Part shown: positions 31,895 through 38,273 of the stretch, piece after piece | Layout of the letters: every line of letters starts with the position of its first letter | How positions within the stretch are numbered: the stretch's first letter is position 1 | Assembly: GCA_035759945.1 (NCBI GenBank) | Contig: DASTTX010000202.1 | Span: 1-56,168, forward strand | Length of the DNA stretch: 56,168 nt | Direction: 5' to 3' | Origin: Candidatus Limnocylindria bacterium | GTDB lineage: Bacteria; Chloroflexota; Limnocylindria; QHBO01 | Made by a program: the position numbers and the translations under genes | The notes under the pieces: model-generated | What the model saw: only the letters and a program-made list of their open reading frames with translations | Told to the model about the DNA's origin: nothing | The model's database searches: none

Positions 31895-32425
31895 ATGGCA
31901 GAACCGATCGAGATCGACGTCTGGCAGGGGGAGATCGCTGAACTCGAGGTGGATGCGATCGTCGTCGCCGCCAACGAGTCGCTCTTCATGACGGTTGGCG
32001 CCGGCGCTGCGGTGAAGCGCGCCGGTGGTGACGAGATCGAGCGCGCGGCCGTCGACCAGGGGCCGATTCGACCCGGAACGGCGGTGGCCACCGGCGGTGG
32101 CTCGCTGGTCGCCCCGTACGTGATCCACGCAGTCGCCGCCGGTCACGATCGTCGCGCCGATCCCGAGGCGTTGGCGGGTGCCGTCAAAGCTGTGCTTGCC
32201 TTCGCCGAACCGCTCCAGCTGCGCCGCATCGCGATGGCGCCGCTCGGGATCGAGCACGGGGTCTTCGCCGCCGCCGATGCGGCCACGATCATCGTCTCGA
32301 CCCTTCGCGCCGAGGCGCCGTCGACGCCGGTCGAGACGATCGTCCTCGCCGCCCCGCACGCCTCCGAGGTCCGCGCGCTGTCCGACGCCCTGCAGGCCGC
32401 CGAGGCCGGAGCGCGCTCCCGGTGA
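31895..32425 (+). CDS. Macro-domain protein (divergent)
   Basis: GEIAELEVDAIVVAANESL...AG......PG.A..T.GG.L.A.YVIHAV matches the macro fold order. The usual GGGV loop reads VGAG. Confidence 0.72.
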   Translation: MAEPIEIDVWQGEIAELEVDAIVVAANESLFMTVGAGAAVKRAGGDEIERAAVDQGPIRPGTAVATGGGSLVAPYVIHAVAAGHDRRADPEALAGAVKAVLAFAEPLQLRRIAMAPLGIEHGVFAAADAATIIVSTLRAEAPSTPVETIVLAAPHASEVRALSDALQAAEAGARSR

Positions 32426-32688
32426 GCGGCGGACCGGCGCGCCGGGTGGCCGAGACGCTCGACCGCCGAGGGCTCGCCGCGCCCGCGCGGCTCTTTGCCG
32501 ACGCTCATCGACCGCTCGCGCCGCTTCTCTCCGACCTGGGCGTCGCGCTCGGACCGCTCCTCGGCGCCGCGTTCGGGGGTCTGACCGCCGACGCGAGCGC
32601 GCTGCTCGAGGACGAGGACGGCCTCGATCTCCTCATCGACCAGCTGGATCGTCGCAGCCAGGGGGCCGGCGGTGCCGAGCCCGACTGA
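32422..32688 (+). CDS. Hypothetical small soluble protein (cluster gene A, 88 aa)
   Basis: GTG at 32422 overlaps the macro-domain stop (GTGA). Third-position G/C bias is strong in this frame. I recognise no family. Confidence 0.45.
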   Translation: MSGGPARRVAETLDRRGLAAPARLFADAHRPLAPLLSDLGVALGPLLGAAFGGLTADASALLEDEDGLDLLIDQLDRRSQGAGGAEPD

Positions 32689-33523
32689 ACTCGTCGCGGA
32701 CGTCATCCGCTTCGTCGGCGAGATCCTCGGCGCCTCGTCGCTCCGCTTCGAGACCGGTCCGACGCTGGTCGTCCTCGGGGTGCTCCTCGTGTTCCTTCAG
32801 CTCGTGGCCCGCCCGGTCAGCCGCTGGGTGACGAGCGATGCCGGCGGCCTGGCCAGCCTCGGACGCGCGATGGCACTGGCCGCGGAGGCCGGCACCGATG
32901 CGGTGATGTCGCTCGGCACGGCCGGCGTCGCGCGCTCGACCGACGTCCACGGCCGCCTCCAGACACTCGCGGCGCTGCCCGTGCTGGGCCACGTCGCCCG
33001 CGCCGCCGCGCGCAGCGGCGTCCCGCTGCGCGTCCTCACCAACGATCCATTGGCCGCCGCGGCCGCGGCGGCAACGCTGGACGCCGCACACGCGGCGACC
33101 TCGACGCAGGAGCGCGTCGGCCGCTCGCGGATCGTCATGGTGGGTGAGGGGCGGCTCGCGCCGGCCGGCCTGGTCATGACGGCGCGGGCGCGCCCGGCCG
33201 CCGCGGTTGCGGCCGGCAGCATGCGCGAGGAGGCAACGCTCCATCTCGAGGGCCTGCGTGGCGGCGCCGGCTCGCTCGCCGCGGCATCGGCCGAGGTGGC
33301 GCAGGCGCCATCGCTGCTGCTCGCCGGTGGCGGGGCGCTCGTCGGGGCCGAGGCCTTCCAGGTCGCGGCGGACCTGCGTGCCGACGTCGGTGAGCGGACC
33401 ATGGTCATCGCGGCCAACAGGCTGATCGGCTTCGCCGTGGCCGCCATCGTGATCGGCACGGCGCTCGCGCTCATGGGCATCATCCATCCAGCCGATCTGC
33501 TGCTCGGGATCGGCGAGGCGTGA
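32672..33523 (+). CDS. Hypothetical membrane protein, two TM segments flanking a ~200-aa Ala-rich domain (cluster gene B)
   Basis: TM1 is TLVVLGVLLVFLQLVA and TM2 is FAVAAIVIGTALALMGII. The coding frame has high GC3. GTG at 32672 is the only start upstream of TM1. Confidence 0.6.
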   Translation: MPSPTELVADVIRFVGEILGASSLRFETGPTLVVLGVLLVFLQLVARPVSRWVTSDAGGLASLGRAMALAAEAGTDAVMSLGTAGVARSTDVHGRLQTLAALPVLGHVARAAARSGVPLRVLTNDPLAAAAAAATLDAAHAATSTQERVGRSRIVMVGEGRLAPAGLVMTARARPAAAVAAGSMREEATLHLEGLRGGAGSLAAASAEVAQAPSLLLAGGGALVGAEAFQVAADLRADVGERTMVIAANRLIGFAVAAIVIGTALALMGIIHPADLLLGIGEA

Positions 33524-34137
33524 AGCGGGCGACCATTCCGGCCCTTGTCGTGGTCGTCGGGGTGCTGGTCCTCGCCGACCTGCTCCTCGTCAACGACTCC
33601 CTCTCCGAGCTGGCCGGCGTCGCCATCGACGCGGCCATCCTCGTCGCGGCCGGAGCGGCGCTGGCCGCGGTCGCGTCCCTCGCTGTCCGGCGCGCGCGCG
33701 ACCTGTGGCGCCGTCGTGGCGACCCCATCGGCGCCGCACTCGTGCTCGCCGGCATGGCAGCCGTGCTCATCGCCGGCCTGCGGCCCGGGGCCGCCGGCGC
33801 CAGCGACCCGGCGGTCGGCTGGCTGGTCGCCGCGCTCCTGATCCCGATCGGCGCGACGCTGTTCGGCCTGCTGTTCGTCACGACGCTCGCCGCATCGCGC
33901 CGTTCGCTGGCGTCGCGCAGCCGCGAGGCCACGGTCCTCGTCGGCGCTGCGCTCGTCGTGCTGCTGATGCTCCTGCCGATCGGCGGCGTCGTCGGGGAGC
34001 GGCTGTCCGACGCCGCCGGCTGGGCGCTCGCCGTGCCGATCGGGGCGGTCTTTCGCGGGATGCTCATCGGCGTCGCCATCCTGGCGGCGGTTTTCGCCGC
34101 GCGCACGCTGCTGGGGGTCGGCGCGACCGATGAGTGA
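33520..34137 (+). CDS. Hypothetical polytopic membrane protein, about 6 TM (cluster gene C)
   Basis: GTGA overlap with gene B. Six hydrophobic stretches are separated by short Arg-rich loops. Confidence 0.65.
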   Translation: MKRATIPALVVVVGVLVLADLLLVNDSLSELAGVAIDAAILVAAGAALAAVASLAVRRARDLWRRRGDPIGAALVLAGMAAVLIAGLRPGAAGASDPAVGWLVAALLIPIGATLFGLLFVTTLAASRRSLASRSREATVLVGAALVVLLMLLPIGGVVGERLSDAAGWALAVPIGAVFRGMLIGVAILAAVFAARTLLGVGATDE

Positions 34138-34957
34138 GCGGAGCGCCCTCGCCACGCGGCTGGCCCCGCTGCTGCTGGTTGTCGCCCTGGCGGCCGCGCT
34201 GCTGGCCGGCCTCGACGACCGTCTGATGCTCGAGAGCGCCGATGACGCCACGGCACGCGCCGTGACGGCGGCCTTCGACGCGATGCCCGACGACGCGCTC
34301 GTGCTGGTCGGCTTCGATCCGGACGTGGGCACCTATGCCGAGATTCGACCGACGGTACGGGCCGTGCTGGCCGATCTCCTCAACCGCGGGGCGACGCTCG
34401 CGGTCGTCAGCCTGACCACGGATGGACGCGCGCTGGCCATCGCCGAGCTGGCGCGCATGGATCGGGCGGAGGCGAACCCGCGGCAGCTCATCGACCTTGG
34501 CTTCCTGCCCGGGGCCGAGGCGGCGCTCGTTGCGCTGGCGCGCGGCATCGACGGCGCGTCGCAGGACCCCATCCGCGCGGATCTGCCCTCGGCCCCGGAC
34601 CTTGCCGTGGTGATCGGCGGCATCGACCTCGGGCCCCGCAGCTGGGTCGAGCAGGTCCAGCCGCGTATCGACGGCATGCCGATCGTGGCCGTCGCGCCGA
34701 CGGTGCTGCTGCCCGAGCTGGAGCCGTATCGCGCCAGCGGCCAGCTGGCGGCGTTGATCGGGACGCCGCGCGACGGTGCGGCGTACCGCGCACATGCGGA
34801 GCTCGGCCGGCTGGAGCGCATGGTCGACCCGTCCGCCGGCCCGTCGCCGGCAGCCATCCTGCTCGGCCTGCTGGTGGCGATCGGCGTGCTGGGGCAGGCC
34901 TTCGGCAGCCGGCTGGCTGCCGTCATGCGGGCCGCGCGACCCCGGGACGTCGCGTGA
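34130..34957 (+). CDS. Hypothetical membrane protein, N- and C-terminal TM anchors flanking a ~210-aa domain (cluster gene D)
   Basis: ATG at 34130 overlaps the gene C end by 8 nt. Anchors are LAPLLLVVALAAALLAGL and AAILLGLLVAIGVLGQAF. Confidence 0.65.
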   Translation: MSERSALATRLAPLLLVVALAAALLAGLDDRLMLESADDATARAVTAAFDAMPDDALVLVGFDPDVGTYAEIRPTVRAVLADLLNRGATLAVVSLTTDGRALAIAELARMDRAEANPRQLIDLGFLPGAEAALVALARGIDGASQDPIRADLPSAPDLAVVIGGIDLGPRSWVEQVQPRIDGMPIVAVAPTVLLPELEPYRASGQLAALIGTPRDGAAYRAHAELGRLERMVDPSAGPSPAAILLGLLVAIGVLGQAFGSRLAAVMRAARPRDVA

Positions 34958-35598
34958 GCGGCTTCTTCGGCACCGCCCAGGCCGATCAGATCGCGACCTG
35001 GGTCGCGGCACTGGCCACGATCGTCGTGCTCGGTGGACTGCTCGGGGAGCGGCGCGTCTTCGGCTGGTCGCAGCACCTCCTCGCCGGCCTGGCGACCGGC
35101 TTCCTGGCGCTGCTTGCGATCACCGAGGTCATCGTGCCGCGCGTCGTGGAGCCGCTCGTCGCCGACCCGGCCGGCCGCCCCGAGCTGTGGCTCGGGCTGC
35201 TTCTCGTGGCTGCGGCCGCAGCGGTGCCGTGGCTGCCGCGAGTCGTCGCCGGCCTCCCGCTGTCCATCACCATCGGCACGCTGGCCGCGTTCGCGCTGGG
35301 CGGCGCGGTGGTGGGGACGTTGCTGCCGCAGCTGGCGGCGACTGTCGCCGGTCGAGAGGCAACCCTTACCGACACCGTCGTCGGCGTCGCCGCGGCCGGC
35401 GTGAGCGGCCTGGTCCTCATCGGCTTCGTGCACGGCACTCCGCGAGGTCGTGTCGTGTCGCTGGCGGCGGCGGGCGGGCGTTGGCTCATGCTGGCCGGGC
35501 TGGGCGGCTGGCTCGGCTATCTGCTCTTCTCCAGGCTCGTCCTCCTGGTCGATCGGGTCGCCTTCCTCGTCGGCGACTGGCTCGGGCTGGCGAGATGA
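34954..35598 (+). CDS. Hypothetical polytopic membrane protein, about 6 TM (cluster gene E)
   Basis: GTGA overlap with gene D. Six hydrophobic stretches. Confidence 0.65.
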   Translation: MSGFFGTAQADQIATWVAALATIVVLGGLLGERRVFGWSQHLLAGLATGFLALLAITEVIVPRVVEPLVADPAGRPELWLGLLLVAAAAAVPWLPRVVAGLPLSITIGTLAAFALGGAVVGTLLPQLAATVAGREATLTDTVVGVAAAGVSGLVLIGFVHGTPRGRVVSLAAAGGRWLMLAGLGGWLGYLLFSRLVLLVDRVAFLVGDWLGLAR

Positions 35599-37217
35599 GC
35601 GACGTGAGCACCGAGCTCGCGCTCCTCGTCGACGTCGGCTCGGCGTGGGCCAAGGCGGGCGTGATCGGACGCGTGCGCGGACGCTGGCGGCTGGTCACGC
35701 AGGTCGCACAACCGACGGCCTGGGGCGCGGCCGAGCTGCGGCGCGGTCTCATCGATCGGCTCGTGGCCGCGGGCGATCCCCGGCTGGCGAACGAATGGGA
35801 CGCGCTCCTCGATGGTGCGACGCGGATCGAGTGCCACACGGCGCACAATCCGGGCCGGTTGGCGGTGGTCGCCGTGTCGCGCGAGGTCTCCGGCAGCAGC
35901 GCGCGTCGCGCCGCCGAAGCGGCCGGCTGGCAGGTCATCGAGGCGGTGACGCTGGACGACGGCCGCACGCTGGCCGATCGGCTCTCGCGGCTGCAATCCG
36001 CCGAAGTCGATGCCTGGCTGGTCGCCGGCGGCTTCGACGACGGGCGCAGCCCACGCGCCATGGAGGCCGCAGCGCTGGTGGCATCGGCGCGTCTTCCCGA
36101 TTCCGGCCCGGTCATCTGGGCGGGGTCCGCCCTGCTCGGCGACGATGTCGCGCTCCTGTTCGAGGAGGGCGCCGTCTCCACGGTGGCGAACCCACGGCCG
36201 GATGCGCGTCGCGAGGAGACGGGGCCGCTGCGCGACCATCTCCAGGCCGTCCTTCGCGCCATCGTCGCCGATGAGGACGAGCGACATCTCGCCTCGGTCG
36301 CGTTTCCGCGTGCGATCGCGACGATGGCGTCCGACGGCGGCCTGCGCATCCTGGGCATCGACGTCGGGGCTCGGGGAGCGGTGCATGCCGTCGCCGAGCC
36401 GGACGGGACAAGCGCGGTGCGGGTGTACTCGACCGGCGGTCTGGCGGGCGCGGTCGACGTACCAGGCGCCGCCGCGCGGGTCACCCGCATCGCGGGCGAT
36501 GCAGGTGACGAGGCCGCCGTGGCGGACACGCTGCAGACGCTGAGGGCGCGGCCGACGACGGTGCCCCAGCTTGCGGAGGAGCTGAGCGCGACGCAGGCGG
36601 CTGTCCGCATGCTCATCGCCGGCATGGTCGAGGATGGGCCGCCGGAGGCGGTCGACCTGGTCGTCGGTGCCGGACGCACGATCGCCGCCGCGCCCCATCC
36701 GGGCGCCGCCGCGCGCATGCTCCTCGACGGCGTTCGGCCGATCGGCGTCACGCAGCTCGCGGTCGATGCCGGCTCCGTGCTCGGACCGCTCGGCTCGCTG
36801 CCGGACGACGAGATCCACGAGGGCATCACCCTGCTGGCAGACGACCTGGTCGTGCCGCTCGGCACGTCCGTGGTGTGCCGCGGTGGCAGCGCGGGGCAGC
36901 TCGCCATGCGGGTCACCGTCCATCGTCCCGGCTGGCCGAGCCACGCGCCGATCGAGGTTCGCGTCGGTCAGCTGCAGGTCGTCCCGCTCGCCGCCGGCCA
37001 GGAGGCGGAGCTGCTGATCGAGCCCGGGCCCGGCATCACGCTGGGCGCGTCGCGCCGCTCGCCGCGCATCCAGGCCCGGGCGACCGGTGGCGCAGTGGGC
37101 ATCATGCTCGACGGCCGGGGAGTGCCGATCGCCCTGCCGCGGCGCGGCGACGATCGGCGCGCGGTGCTCGCCGCCTGGCACGACGCGCTGTCTCGGGACC
37201 TGGACCGCGTCACATGA
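35595..37217 (+). CDS. ASKHA (actin/Hsp70/sugar-kinase fold) ATPase, MutL/GlmL-like (cluster gene F, 540 aa)
   Basis: ATG at 35595 (ATGA overlap with gene E). It has a phosphate-1-like LLVDVGSAWAKAG and a second ILGIDVGARGAV motif. The motif order LAVVAVS...AGW.VIE...VDAWLVAGGFDDG...PVIWAGS resembles my recollection of glutamate-mutase component L. The track's 813-aa ORF 34776-37217 includes an out-of-frame shadow over genes D and E. Confidence 0.7.
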   Translation: MSDVSTELALLVDVGSAWAKAGVIGRVRGRWRLVTQVAQPTAWGAAELRRGLIDRLVAAGDPRLANEWDALLDGATRIECHTAHNPGRLAVVAVSREVSGSSARRAAEAAGWQVIEAVTLDDGRTLADRLSRLQSAEVDAWLVAGGFDDGRSPRAMEAAALVASARLPDSGPVIWAGSALLGDDVALLFEEGAVSTVANPRPDARREETGPLRDHLQAVLRAIVADEDERHLASVAFPRAIATMASDGGLRILGIDVGARGAVHAVAEPDGTSAVRVYSTGGLAGAVDVPGAAARVTRIAGDAGDEAAVADTLQTLRARPTTVPQLAEELSATQAAVRMLIAGMVEDGPPEAVDLVVGAGRTIAAAPHPGAAARMLLDGVRPIGVTQLAVDAGSVLGPLGSLPDDEIHEGITLLADDLVVPLGTSVVCRGGSAGQLAMRVTVHRPGWPSHAPIEVRVGQLQVVPLAAGQEAELLIEPGPGITLGASRRSPRIQARATGGAVGIMLDGRGVPIALPRRGDDRRAVLAAWHDALSRDLDRVT

Positions 37218-38248
37218 GCGTCCTGCATCGGGTTCGCCTGCCCGTCGGCGCGACCGTGCTGGTCGAGGTGGGACACAGCGTCGAGCCGGCCGAGGTGCTC
37301 GCCACCCGACGCCCGGCGTCGGGAGGGATGAGCGTGCCGATCGCCTCGCGGCTGCGCCGGTCGGCCGCCGACGCGGCGGACCTGCTCGCCGTCCGCCCCG
37401 GGACCGCGCTCGAGGCCGGTGACCGGATCGCGGACGACGGTCACGGTCGCGAGGTTCTCGCGCCGCAGGCGTGCCTGTTCCTTGGCTACGACCTCGATGA
37501 CGGCTCGGCGCTGGTCGCGCCACTCGGCCCGACGGAGCCGATCCTCGGCCACGTCCGCGGCGAGGTCACCTCCGTCACGCCGGACGCGATCGAGATTCGC
37601 GTGGCCGGAGCGCTCGTGACCGGGGTCGGTGGGAGCGGCAAGGCGGTCCACGGCGAGCTCCGAATGGCGGTCCATGAGCCCGGCGACGAGCTCAGAGCCG
37701 GCGGCATCGACGTCAGCGCGACCGGACGCATCCTGGTCGGCGGCTCCCGAGCCTCGGCCGAGGCGCTGACCAGGGCACGTGCCATGGGCGTGGCCGGGAT
37801 CGTGGTCGGTGGCGTGCTCGACAAGGAGCTGCGCGACTTCGAGGCCGCCCAGCGCCGTCGGCGCGAGGTCGGCGGTGCGCGCGGCGACCTGGCGATCGTG
37901 ATCGTCGAGGGCTTCGGCAAGGTCGGCATCGGCGCGGAGCTGTTCGCCTGGTTCCGTTCGCACGAGGGCCGCGTGGCCAGCGTCTTCGGCGCGACGGCAC
38001 GCGTCTACGTCTACGAGGCCGATGCACCGCCTCCGCGGCGAATCCTGGCACGGCCGGGGAACCGCGTCCTGGCGCTGCGGCGACCCTTCGCCGGCATCGG
38101 TGGGGAGCTCCTGCGCGTCCTCGACCAGCCCCATGCCAATGGGGCGGGCGTCGTGTCTCGCTCGGCACTGGTTCGTTTCGAGGACGGGCGCACCGCGGTC
38201 GTGCCGCTCGCCAACCTCGAGGCGACGGGGGACCTGTCCGGCGGCTGA
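37214..38248 (+). CDS. Hypothetical multi-domain protein with a barrel-sandwich-hybrid-like N-terminus (cluster gene G, 344 aa)
   Basis: ATG at 37214 (ATGA overlap with gene F). The lipoyl/biotinyl-like pattern VLVEVGHSVEPAEVLA...LEAGDRIA is followed by a GIVVGGV alpha/beta segment and a C-terminal KOW/SH3-like GNRVLAL...VRFEDGRTAVVPL. Confidence 0.62.
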   Translation: MSVLHRVRLPVGATVLVEVGHSVEPAEVLATRRPASGGMSVPIASRLRRSAADAADLLAVRPGTALEAGDRIADDGHGREVLAPQACLFLGYDLDDGSALVAPLGPTEPILGHVRGEVTSVTPDAIEIRVAGALVTGVGGSGKAVHGELRMAVHEPGDELRAGGIDVSATGRILVGGSRASAEALTRARAMGVAGIVVGGVLDKELRDFEAAQRRRREVGGARGDLAIVIVEGFGKVGIGAELFAWFRSHEGRVASVFGATARVYVYEADAPPPRRILARPGNRVLALRRPFAGIGGELLRVLDQPHANGAGVVSRSALVRFEDGRTAVVPLANLEATGDLSGG

Positions 38249-38273
38249 GCCTGCCGTTCCTATACTTTCCCGC

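Follow-up and report, generated by a model that had tools for sequence, protein, structure and literature searches.

What are seven overlapping genes of no obvious function doing in the middle of a housekeeping gene array? The question is raised by a genome of Candidatus Limnocylindria (Chloroflexota), from which we analysed one contig stretch of 56,168 nucleotides, hereafter the window. Seven consecutive genes, here called A to G, occupy positions 32422-38248 of its + strand, and a first-pass annotation, made from the letters of the window, had described them as one operon for a membrane machine that was driven or scaffolded by an orphan actin-fold ATPase and possibly related to the cell envelope. 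On the comparisons reported here, the seven genes are the Limnocylindria version, a diverged copy, of an ancient, widespread and uncharacterised multi-subunit system. The idea of an operon and a complex is strongly supported by comparative genomics, although it is not proven, and the proposed orphan status and envelope role are not supported.

First, the seven open reading frames are real coding genes under purifying selection. They lie where they had been placed and have the lengths that had been given (88, 283, 205, 275, 214, 540 and 344 amino acids (aa) for A to G), and the third-position bias noted before was also measured: with a G+C content of 68-75% along the window, that of the third codon positions (GC3) is 0.84-0.93 in the seven genes, compared with 0.52-0.56 at the second positions (GC2). 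When the genes were compared with those of two relatives of 96-97% identity, the ratio of nonsynonymous to synonymous substitution rates (dN/dS) was 0.03-0.24, which is the range of the comparison genes alr (0.11) and tsaD (0.07), and A to G are therefore taken as real genes. The chain of overlaps is likewise present as described, with 4 nucleotides (nt) shared by the preceding macro-domain gene and A, 17 nt by A and B, 8 nt by C and D, and 4 nt at each of the junctions B/C, D/E, E/F and F/G; the shared letters are GTGA at macro/A, B/C and D/E, and ATGA at E/F and F/G. The start codon of B is uncertain, as homology within its family starts near residue 24, and the 17-nt overlap could therefore be a short gap. 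Overlaps alone are weak evidence of a unit here, because all genes from ~1 to 45 kb lie on the + strand with close spacing and form a long co-directional housekeeping array, in which seven genes could have become neighbours by chance. That explanation has almost nothing left to recommend it; it is refuted by the occurrence of the seven families together in three gene orders and in more than 15 phyla, and by the fusions and duplicated blocks seen among them.

Second, the set is maintained far beyond the lineage of the window. In an exhaustive search of a database clustered at 50% identity, 943 representatives of F homologues were obtained, and three groups could be distinguished among them, namely a mainstream group of ~600 aa, a group of ~584 aa and the Limnocylindria group. 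Counting as well flanked those loci that have at least 6 kb on either side of F, we found the complete A-G set in 20 of the 22 Limnocylindria loci, in 47 of the 50 from Anaerolineae and in 31 of the 48 from the mainstream group, which amounts to 98/120 over the three lineage groups, and the family hidden Markov models (HMMs) recognised the window genes with E=5e-24 to 2.5e-190. Mainstream F is carried by at least 591 species, including one cultured Nitrospira strain, and is found in Nitrospira, Planctomycetota/Brocadia (anammox), Eisenbacteria, Zixibacteria, Ignavibacteria, Calditrichota, Latescibacterota, Poribacteria, WOR-3, Fermentibacteria, Marinimicrobia, Sumerlaeota, Nitrospinae and Armatimonadota, while the ~584-aa group is that of Anaerolineae, with at least 567 species. 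The mainstream loci in which all seven families were present include members of Nitrospira, Planctomycetota/Brocadia, Eisenbacteria, Zixibacteria, Ignavibacteria, Calditrichota, Latescibacterota, WOR-3, Fermentibacteria, Marinimicrobia and Sumerlaeota. As the whole F subfamily comprises at least 8000 clusters at 90% identity and, over two scans, at least 1150 species, F is by no means an orphan. Its identity of 60-70% between phyla in the mainstream group is at a level typical of core machinery.

The arrangement of the genes is as informative as their presence. Down to ~48% identity of F, 42 Limnocylindria/Chloroflexota loci keep the order alr-(macro)-A-B-C-D-E-F-G-tsaE, and in Anaerolineae the order A-B-C-D-E-F-G of the window recurs independently of alr and tsaE, which do not flank it there. 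The 20 Limnocylindria and 47 Anaerolineae loci counted above share this A-G order. Scanning with the family HMMs showed that the usual mainstream order is (X)-A-F-G-B-C-D-E, in which X is an extra protein with two transmembrane (TM) segments that is not encoded in the window, and the variants include F-G-A-B-C-D-E, a divergent (E-D-C-B) block opposite F-[265-aa gene]-G and a tandem B-C-D-E-B-C-D-E. Because the set survives this shuffling of the gene order, it argues for a functional link between the seven genes and not for inherited synteny. The claim of a single unit thus holds at both distances, with the order retained in Limnocylindria and Anaerolineae and all seven families co-occurring, permuted, in other phyla, and a stoichiometric complex of the products would be consistent with it.

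Within the unit, F and G probably work together, and natural fusions of the two are the strongest available sign of this. Three representatives (P0313, P0314 and P0340) are F-G fusion proteins, and residues 8-337 of G can be aligned with residues 641-992 of a 995-aa F homologue (E=1e-22); G also adjoins F in every case in Chloroflexota. The membrane genes show a grouping of their own: in six loci, two tandem copies of the B-C-D-E block stand beside one F-G, in keeping with a membrane unit that is modular. A adjoins F or B in every gene order and stands directly before one of them in other phyla.

F (35595..37217, + strand, 540 aa) was predicted to have an acetate and sugar kinase/Hsc70/actin (ASKHA) fold of the MutL/GlmL type, and this assignment has been sustained by a Pfam match and a structure model. 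The protein has no TM segment by hydropathy and is expected to be cytoplasmic. It matches PF13941 with E=1.7e-24 and 86.8 bits against a threshold of 27, over positions 2-434 of the 450 of the model, and is followed by a C-terminal, beta-rich and family-specific domain of ~130 aa with the motif GGxxGxxxDxRGxP. Using its AlphaFold 2 (AF2) model (predicted local distance difference test (pLDDT) 82; predicted template modelling score (pTM) 0.74), the best folds in the PDB were N-methylhydantoinase, acetophenone and acetone carboxylase, PilM, Ppx/GppA, DnaK and HgdC-type activators, and FtsA was also among the matches. With weak Hydantoinase_A Pfam matches in mainstream F in addition, F is, as modelled, an ASKHA protein of the hydantoinase branch.

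The same Pfam match, together with the names 'glutamate mutase L' or 'methylaspartate mutase' that relatives of F bear in public records, could be taken to mean that F is GlmL/MutL, the protein that assists or reactivates a B12-dependent mutase, and that its neighbours are unrelated to it. GlmL/MutL (NF040745, TIGR01319; PF13941) has the fold and the Pfam family in common with F, and the GlmL models align with the N-terminal ~400-480 residues of F. A GlmL gene would be expected beside or between the B12-mutase subunit genes glmS/glmE (mutS/mutE). However, the scores fall below the GlmL cut-offs both for the window protein (37.1 bits vs 475 for the equivalog model and 32.8 vs 204 for glmL_fam) and for a mainstream orthologue (233.8 vs 475 and 170 vs 204), and F differs from GlmL by its extra C-terminal domain, by G as a partner with which it travels and is sometimes fused, and by the four membrane proteins. 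No mutase gene was found among the Pfam-annotated genes of the window, in which the ribosomal-protein stretch below ~24 kb was not scanned, and no mutase subunit gene in the Pfam-annotated neighbourhoods of three loci. We regard a GlmL function as extremely unlikely.

Whether F acts as an ATPase in this lineage is less clear than had been assumed. In mainstream F, the motifs DCGSTTTK (DxGSTTTK), DIGGATTD and GSGG are intact, but in Limnocylindria they are degenerate and read DVGSAWAK, DVGARGAVH and GAGR, at residues 13-20, 256-264 and 358-361 of window F. The window protein keeps D13, G15, S16, K20, G145-G146, D256 and G258. This decay of the phosphate-1, phosphate-2 and adenosine motifs runs throughout Limnocylindria, and yet dN/dS is low. 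Because most of the canonical nucleotide-contact residues have been lost in this lineage, F may be mainly a structural or regulatory subunit there, and the description of the system as driven by an ATPase is uncertain for the window copy. Apart from the mainstream, ~584-aa and Limnocylindria groups, a fourth F subgroup of ~547 aa was seen in eight representatives, which have ~32% identity to window F and are nearer to it than to the mainstream; in the one member that was scanned (P0282), no Pfam match was found. Among further homologues of F (P0299 and P0328, of ~1300 aa, with P0258 and P0360), some have long N-terminal extensions that bear a TSP3 repeat or a Peptidase_M1 domain, and two entries resemble E-F or D/E-F fusions, which are perhaps gene-calling artefacts.

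G (37214..38248, + strand, 344 aa) also has no TM segment by hydropathy and is predicted to be cytoplasmic. It had been called rich in beta-barrels, and this is what was found at both ends: an N-terminal barrel-sandwich hybrid, with weak matches to RnfC_N and RPOC_hybrid, and a C-terminal KOW/SH3-like barrel with KOW/NusG/Spt5 matches, KOW being the only sequence relative of G in the PDB. Between them lies a Gly-rich alpha/beta domain in which E232-G233 and several Gly-rich loops are invariant. In an AF2 model built from a shallow alignment, residues 1-130 and 280-340 are confident and the central domain is poor (pLDDT 62). No family of Pfam, NCBIfam or PADLOC was assigned to G, which is named 'biotin carboxyl carrier protein' in public records. 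A role as lipoyl or biotinyl carrier was considered and rejected, as the Lys/Arg in the hairpin of the barrel-sandwich domain is not invariant.

The topologies proposed for the other products were reproduced by hydropathy with a TM threshold of 1.5, which gave two TM segments for B and D, six for C, five to six for E and one marginal stretch for A. B (32672..33523, + strand, 283 aa) has, besides a weak third, an N-terminal and a C-terminal TM segment, which flank a domain of ~200 aa that belongs to PF20539, DUF6754 (E=1.6e-13, 50.8 bits vs a cut-off of 27, model positions 17-252 of 257). Window B is a true member of this family, from which no functional information can be drawn, and differs from most members outside Chloroflexota in having neither their signal peptide nor their FN3 domain. 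Because mainstream B starts with this extra N-terminal signal peptide and extracytoplasmic FN3 domain, the DUF6754 domain can be placed, in all probability, in the cytoplasm. The invariant residues of B are E72, G74, G82, T98, G182, E187 and G225, and E72, T98, E187, Q211 and E227 are highlighted within the DUF6754 domain. D (34130..34957, + strand, 275 aa) has N- and C-terminal TM segments around a domain of ~210 aa. Since its orientation is N-in (N-terminus inside) in 63 of 82 family members, the conserved D63-x-D65, E71 (100%), W172 and Q205 of this domain are predicted to face outward; D is also the fastest-evolving of the seven proteins (dN/dS 0.11-0.42). In Anaerolineae, the homologue of D is enlarged to ~880 aa (locus L128, 4630-7269), with the D-like part at its C-terminus and an N-terminal extension of ~600 aa in which no Pfam match was found.

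The polytopic proteins are C (33520..34137, + strand, 205 aa), with six hydrophobic segments and a K+R bias of 13 to 2 in favour of an N-terminus inside, and E (34954..35598, + strand, 214 aa). Both are recognised by their family HMMs (E=1.7e-70 for C and 1.6e-72 for E), and the invariant residues are G14, L118, A125, R128 and G184 in C, and T22, G45, Q126, F158, G175, G184 and R201 in E; window C has no Cys. A (32422..32688, + strand, 88 aa) is a small protein whose marginal hydrophobic stretch at residues 32-50 scores 1.54, with conserved prolines at P31 and P45. Homologues of A were found in ~90 loci, its family HMM matches the window with E=4.9e-24, and its dN/dS is 0.13-0.24. The possibility that B/D and C/E are paralogous pairs from a duplicated two-gene module was rejected, as all hhalign probabilities were below 2% and that of C vs E below 1%.

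To what extent are these families known? The first-pass annotation had stated that none of the proteins resembles a characterised family, fold of F aside. This stands for A, C, D and E, which have no match in Pfam, NCBIfam or PADLOC and no sequence relative in the PDB, and needs correction for B and F, which belong to DUF6754 and PF13941, two families without described function. PF13941 and DUF6754 were also the only families returned by the Pfam and NCBIfam scans of the seven proteins and their mainstream orthologues, and searches of the PDB with single sequences and family profiles of B, C, D, E, F and G returned only FN3, in the N-terminus of mainstream B, and the KOW of G. In RefSeq, the orthologues of the cultured Nitrospira sp. 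BLG_1 are named 'hypothetical protein' for A, C, D, E and G and 'DUF6754 domain-containing protein' for B, and in a full-text search no description of these families was found within the literature covered. No confident homology to a characterised transporter, secretion or division system was obtained in the Pfam, NCBIfam, PADLOC and PDB searches. With regard to transporters, no ABC_tran or permease family matched A-G in Pfam or NCBIfam, and the profiles of C and E gave no hit among PDB sequences. The PADLOC defence models gave zero matches with the seven window proteins and three mainstream orthologues.

A superficial likeness exists to the Rnf/Nqr complexes, in that the barrel-sandwich domain of G weakly matches RnfC_N, C and E have the size and about six TM segments of RnfA/E, and D, like RnfG, is bitopic and has its domain outside. 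In contrast to the homologous pairs RnfA/E and NqrD/E, however, C and E are non-homologous, and an Rnf/Nqr complex was rejected because RnfC scored 15 bits vs 246, no Rnf-Nqr Pfam family matched and no Fe-S or flavin motifs were present. As far as comparison of sequences and, to a limited extent, of structures can tell, the complete system belongs to no known kind and, within the literature covered, is undescribed.

Among the explanations considered, the best is that a cytoplasmic module of F and G is docked on a membrane-spanning module of B, C, D and E, the two together moving or assembling a substrate at the membrane, and we would give it somewhat less than an even chance. The membrane module would consist of B with its cytoplasmic DUF6754 domain, the six-TM protein C, D with its outside domain and E with five to six TM segments, and the cytoplasmic module of the nucleotide-binding fold and C-terminal domain of F, bound to G. 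A, and probably also the DUF6754 domain of B, would join the two modules. In the mainstream family, binding and hydrolysis of a nucleotide by F would lead to conformational changes that pass to G, A and B and from there to the membrane core of C and E and the outward domain of D, with the result that the substrate is moved or assembled at or across the cytoplasmic membrane, and the role of the system would be of a housekeeping rather than an accessory type. The analysis shows the gene set with its conservation, the F-G fusions, the fold of F and the domains of G, together with the predicted membrane topologies; that the products form a complex, how its modules are coupled, in which direction it acts and what kind of substrate it has are inferred. 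A bolder form of it, in which F as an ASKHA ATPase, with G as partner, powers a membrane module of four subunits, all from unknown families, and so takes the part that P-loop ATPases play in known transporters and secretion systems, as a new class of machine with a core housekeeping role, is more tentative, and we would sooner doubt it than rely on it.

Several points weigh against this proposal. The case for a complex rests on genomic association, and the movement or assembly of a substrate has no direct support, no member resembling a component of a transporter or of a secretion, division or redox system. In structure, F is nearest to hydrolases and carboxylases that are soluble and depend on ATP, and the nucleotide motifs of window F are the degenerate ones. 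In addition, F occurs without G or B-E within 8 kb in seven loci, which belong to Armatimonadota and some Planctomycetota, Poribacteria and Zixibacteria with mainstream F, and in the three most divergent loci of the Limnocylindria type (L036, L037 and L041; F 40-47% identical), alr and tsaE enclose F-G alone (with F at 8001-9542 in L037), and the genes A-E are absent there. From these lone-F genomes and F-G-only loci, it appears that F, or F-G, can have its genes at a separate site from those of the membrane proteins or can work without them.

The enzyme relatives of F suggest a different division of labour, in which F-G forms a soluble, ATP-dependent enzyme akin to hydantoinases and carboxylases that acts on a small metabolite, and B-C-D-E imports or exports its substrate or product, so that the cluster would serve metabolism or salvage, perhaps in connection with glycine cleavage or the use of lipoate. 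Besides the best folds of F and the weak Hydantoinase_A matches in its mainstream relatives, the invariant Gly-rich loops and E232-G233 of G look like an active or ligand-binding site, and the genomic context provides some support, since gcvT-gcvH-gcvPA-gcvPB lie upstream of the cluster in 13 loci and a lipoate-protein ligase gene directly follows it in 7. The clearest case is L047 (2970-15016), where gcvT-gcvH-gcvPA-gcvPB-X-A-F-G-B-C-D-E-lplA form a tightly packed array with overlapping junctions; the gcv/lplA context was also seen in L045, L062, L063, L068, L079, L089 and L092. The array could point to a function, or the genes may do no more than share a super-operon. Although hydantoinase A and the acetone and acetophenone carboxylase subunits (PDB 9h03, 5l9w, 5svc and 5m45) are the best structural matches of F and share its ASKHA branch, the TM-scores are low, at 0.22-0.31, with an identity of 10-12%, and these enzymes are soluble proteins without membrane partners, whose Hydantoinase_B-type partner (HyuB) is missing beside F. 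The gcv/lplA context is confined to a few related lineages, with other contexts elsewhere; G does not have the features of a lipoyl or biotinyl carrier; B-E resemble no known transporter family; and degenerate motifs in a window F under purifying selection are difficult to reconcile with a role in catalysis alone. On balance we consider the soluble enzyme unlikely, while ranking it ahead of the remaining alternatives.

The loss of nucleotide motifs from a retained F is, on the other hand, what would be expected of a scaffold. According to this third possibility, F is an actin-like protein tethered to the membrane, a scaffold or part of a cytoskeleton, that follows the logic of PilM-PilN/O or FtsA and organises B-E as an envelope or division complex, without transport. 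The folds matched by F include PilM and FtsA, A could tether F as the N-terminus of PilN tethers PilM, and tolQ...tolB adjoins the cluster in 9 loci of the FCB group. In PilM-PilN/O/P of type IV pili and in FtsA systems, a cytoplasmic ASKHA protein is likewise tethered to bitopic proteins with outside domains, but there is no sequence homology in any component, nothing there corresponds to G or to the polytopic C and E, and the cluster has no PilN, PilO, PilQ or pilin genes. None of the seven proteins matched the MreB, FtsA or PilM families or their partners in Pfam or NCBIfam, which leaves F and its neighbours without a sequence relationship to PilM, FtsA, MreB, PilN/O, MreC/D or FtsQ; sequence searches put F in the hydantoinase/GlmL branch and not with actin/FtsA, there is no evidence of polymerisation, and the association with Tol is lineage-restricted. 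A pure scaffold is improbable, clearly more so than the soluble enzyme. Some loci with the Tol association have a further gene of interest: a conserved gene for 265 aa, with no family match, lies between F and G in Zixibacteria, Ignavibacteria and Calditrichota (for example in L057, L064, L073 (2657-3451), L088 (12341-13060), L115, L118 and L122), and at these loci tolQ (MotA_ExbB) comes after G and tolB further on.

Returning to the two-module proposal, its role should be read from the neighbourhoods with care. The envelope role had been suggested by the flanking genes, and these are indeed present as described, with cdaA, glmM, glmS and alr upstream and glmU downstream. The alr...tsaE flank is specific to Limnocylindria, however, and in other lineages the cluster follows gcvT-H-P or cdsA, adjoins tolQ/tolB or precedes a Memo-like gene. 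With flanks that vary from one lineage to the next, the link to the envelope is not supported; the neighbours are housekeeping genes in every lineage and, on this genomic evidence, point to 'housekeeping' and not to 'envelope'.

A gene set as conserved as this one is rarely without both a function and a literature; the classical model bacteria do not have it, which would account for its having been overlooked. Its carriers are of large environmental importance, including the nitrite oxidiser Nitrospira, anammox Brocadia, Anaerolineae, soil Limnocylindria, Zixibacteria and Ignavibacteria, and the current mutase and biotin-carrier names of F and G are misleading. If the proposed complex is real, an ASKHA-powered membrane system will join the known repertoire, and five or six dark protein families will gain names and partners. 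Testable predictions of which subunits touch can already be made from the three gene orders, from the fusions of F with G and from the doubled B-C-D-E blocks.

The immediate surroundings of the cluster in the window are those of the housekeeping array. Ribosomal protein operons, cdaA, ybbR/cdaR, glmM, glmS, acpS, nnrD, alr and the macro-domain gene (PF01661; 31895-32425, with the GTGA overlap into A) precede it in this order, and tsaE, tsaB, rimI, tsaD, rsmA, ispE, ridA and glmU follow. The cluster looks inserted between alr and tsaE, because alr-tsaE-tsaB-rimI-tsaD are commonly contiguous in other bacteria. The macro-domain gene is a dispensable, lineage-specific add-on outside the conserved set, as it is missing from eight Limnocylindria loci that have alr and A (L013, L014, L018, L024, L025, L029, L031 and L040) and from the cluster loci of all other phyla. 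In the non-coding signals, an Rfam scan of positions 1-56168 gave no family at its gathering score, and no glmS ribozyme, c-di-AMP riboswitch or ribosomal-protein leader was recognised in it, including upstream of glmS (27619) and cdaA (24040); a sigma-70 promoter scan found no promoter. A consensus scan for terminator-like sites found 4 in the window vs 1.2 expected in shuffled sequences, which is not evidence of function. One of them, a weak hairpin on the + strand at 38240..38258 with a 6-bp stem and a poor T tract, lies over the stop codon of G and may mark the 3' end of the seven-gene unit, before tsaE.

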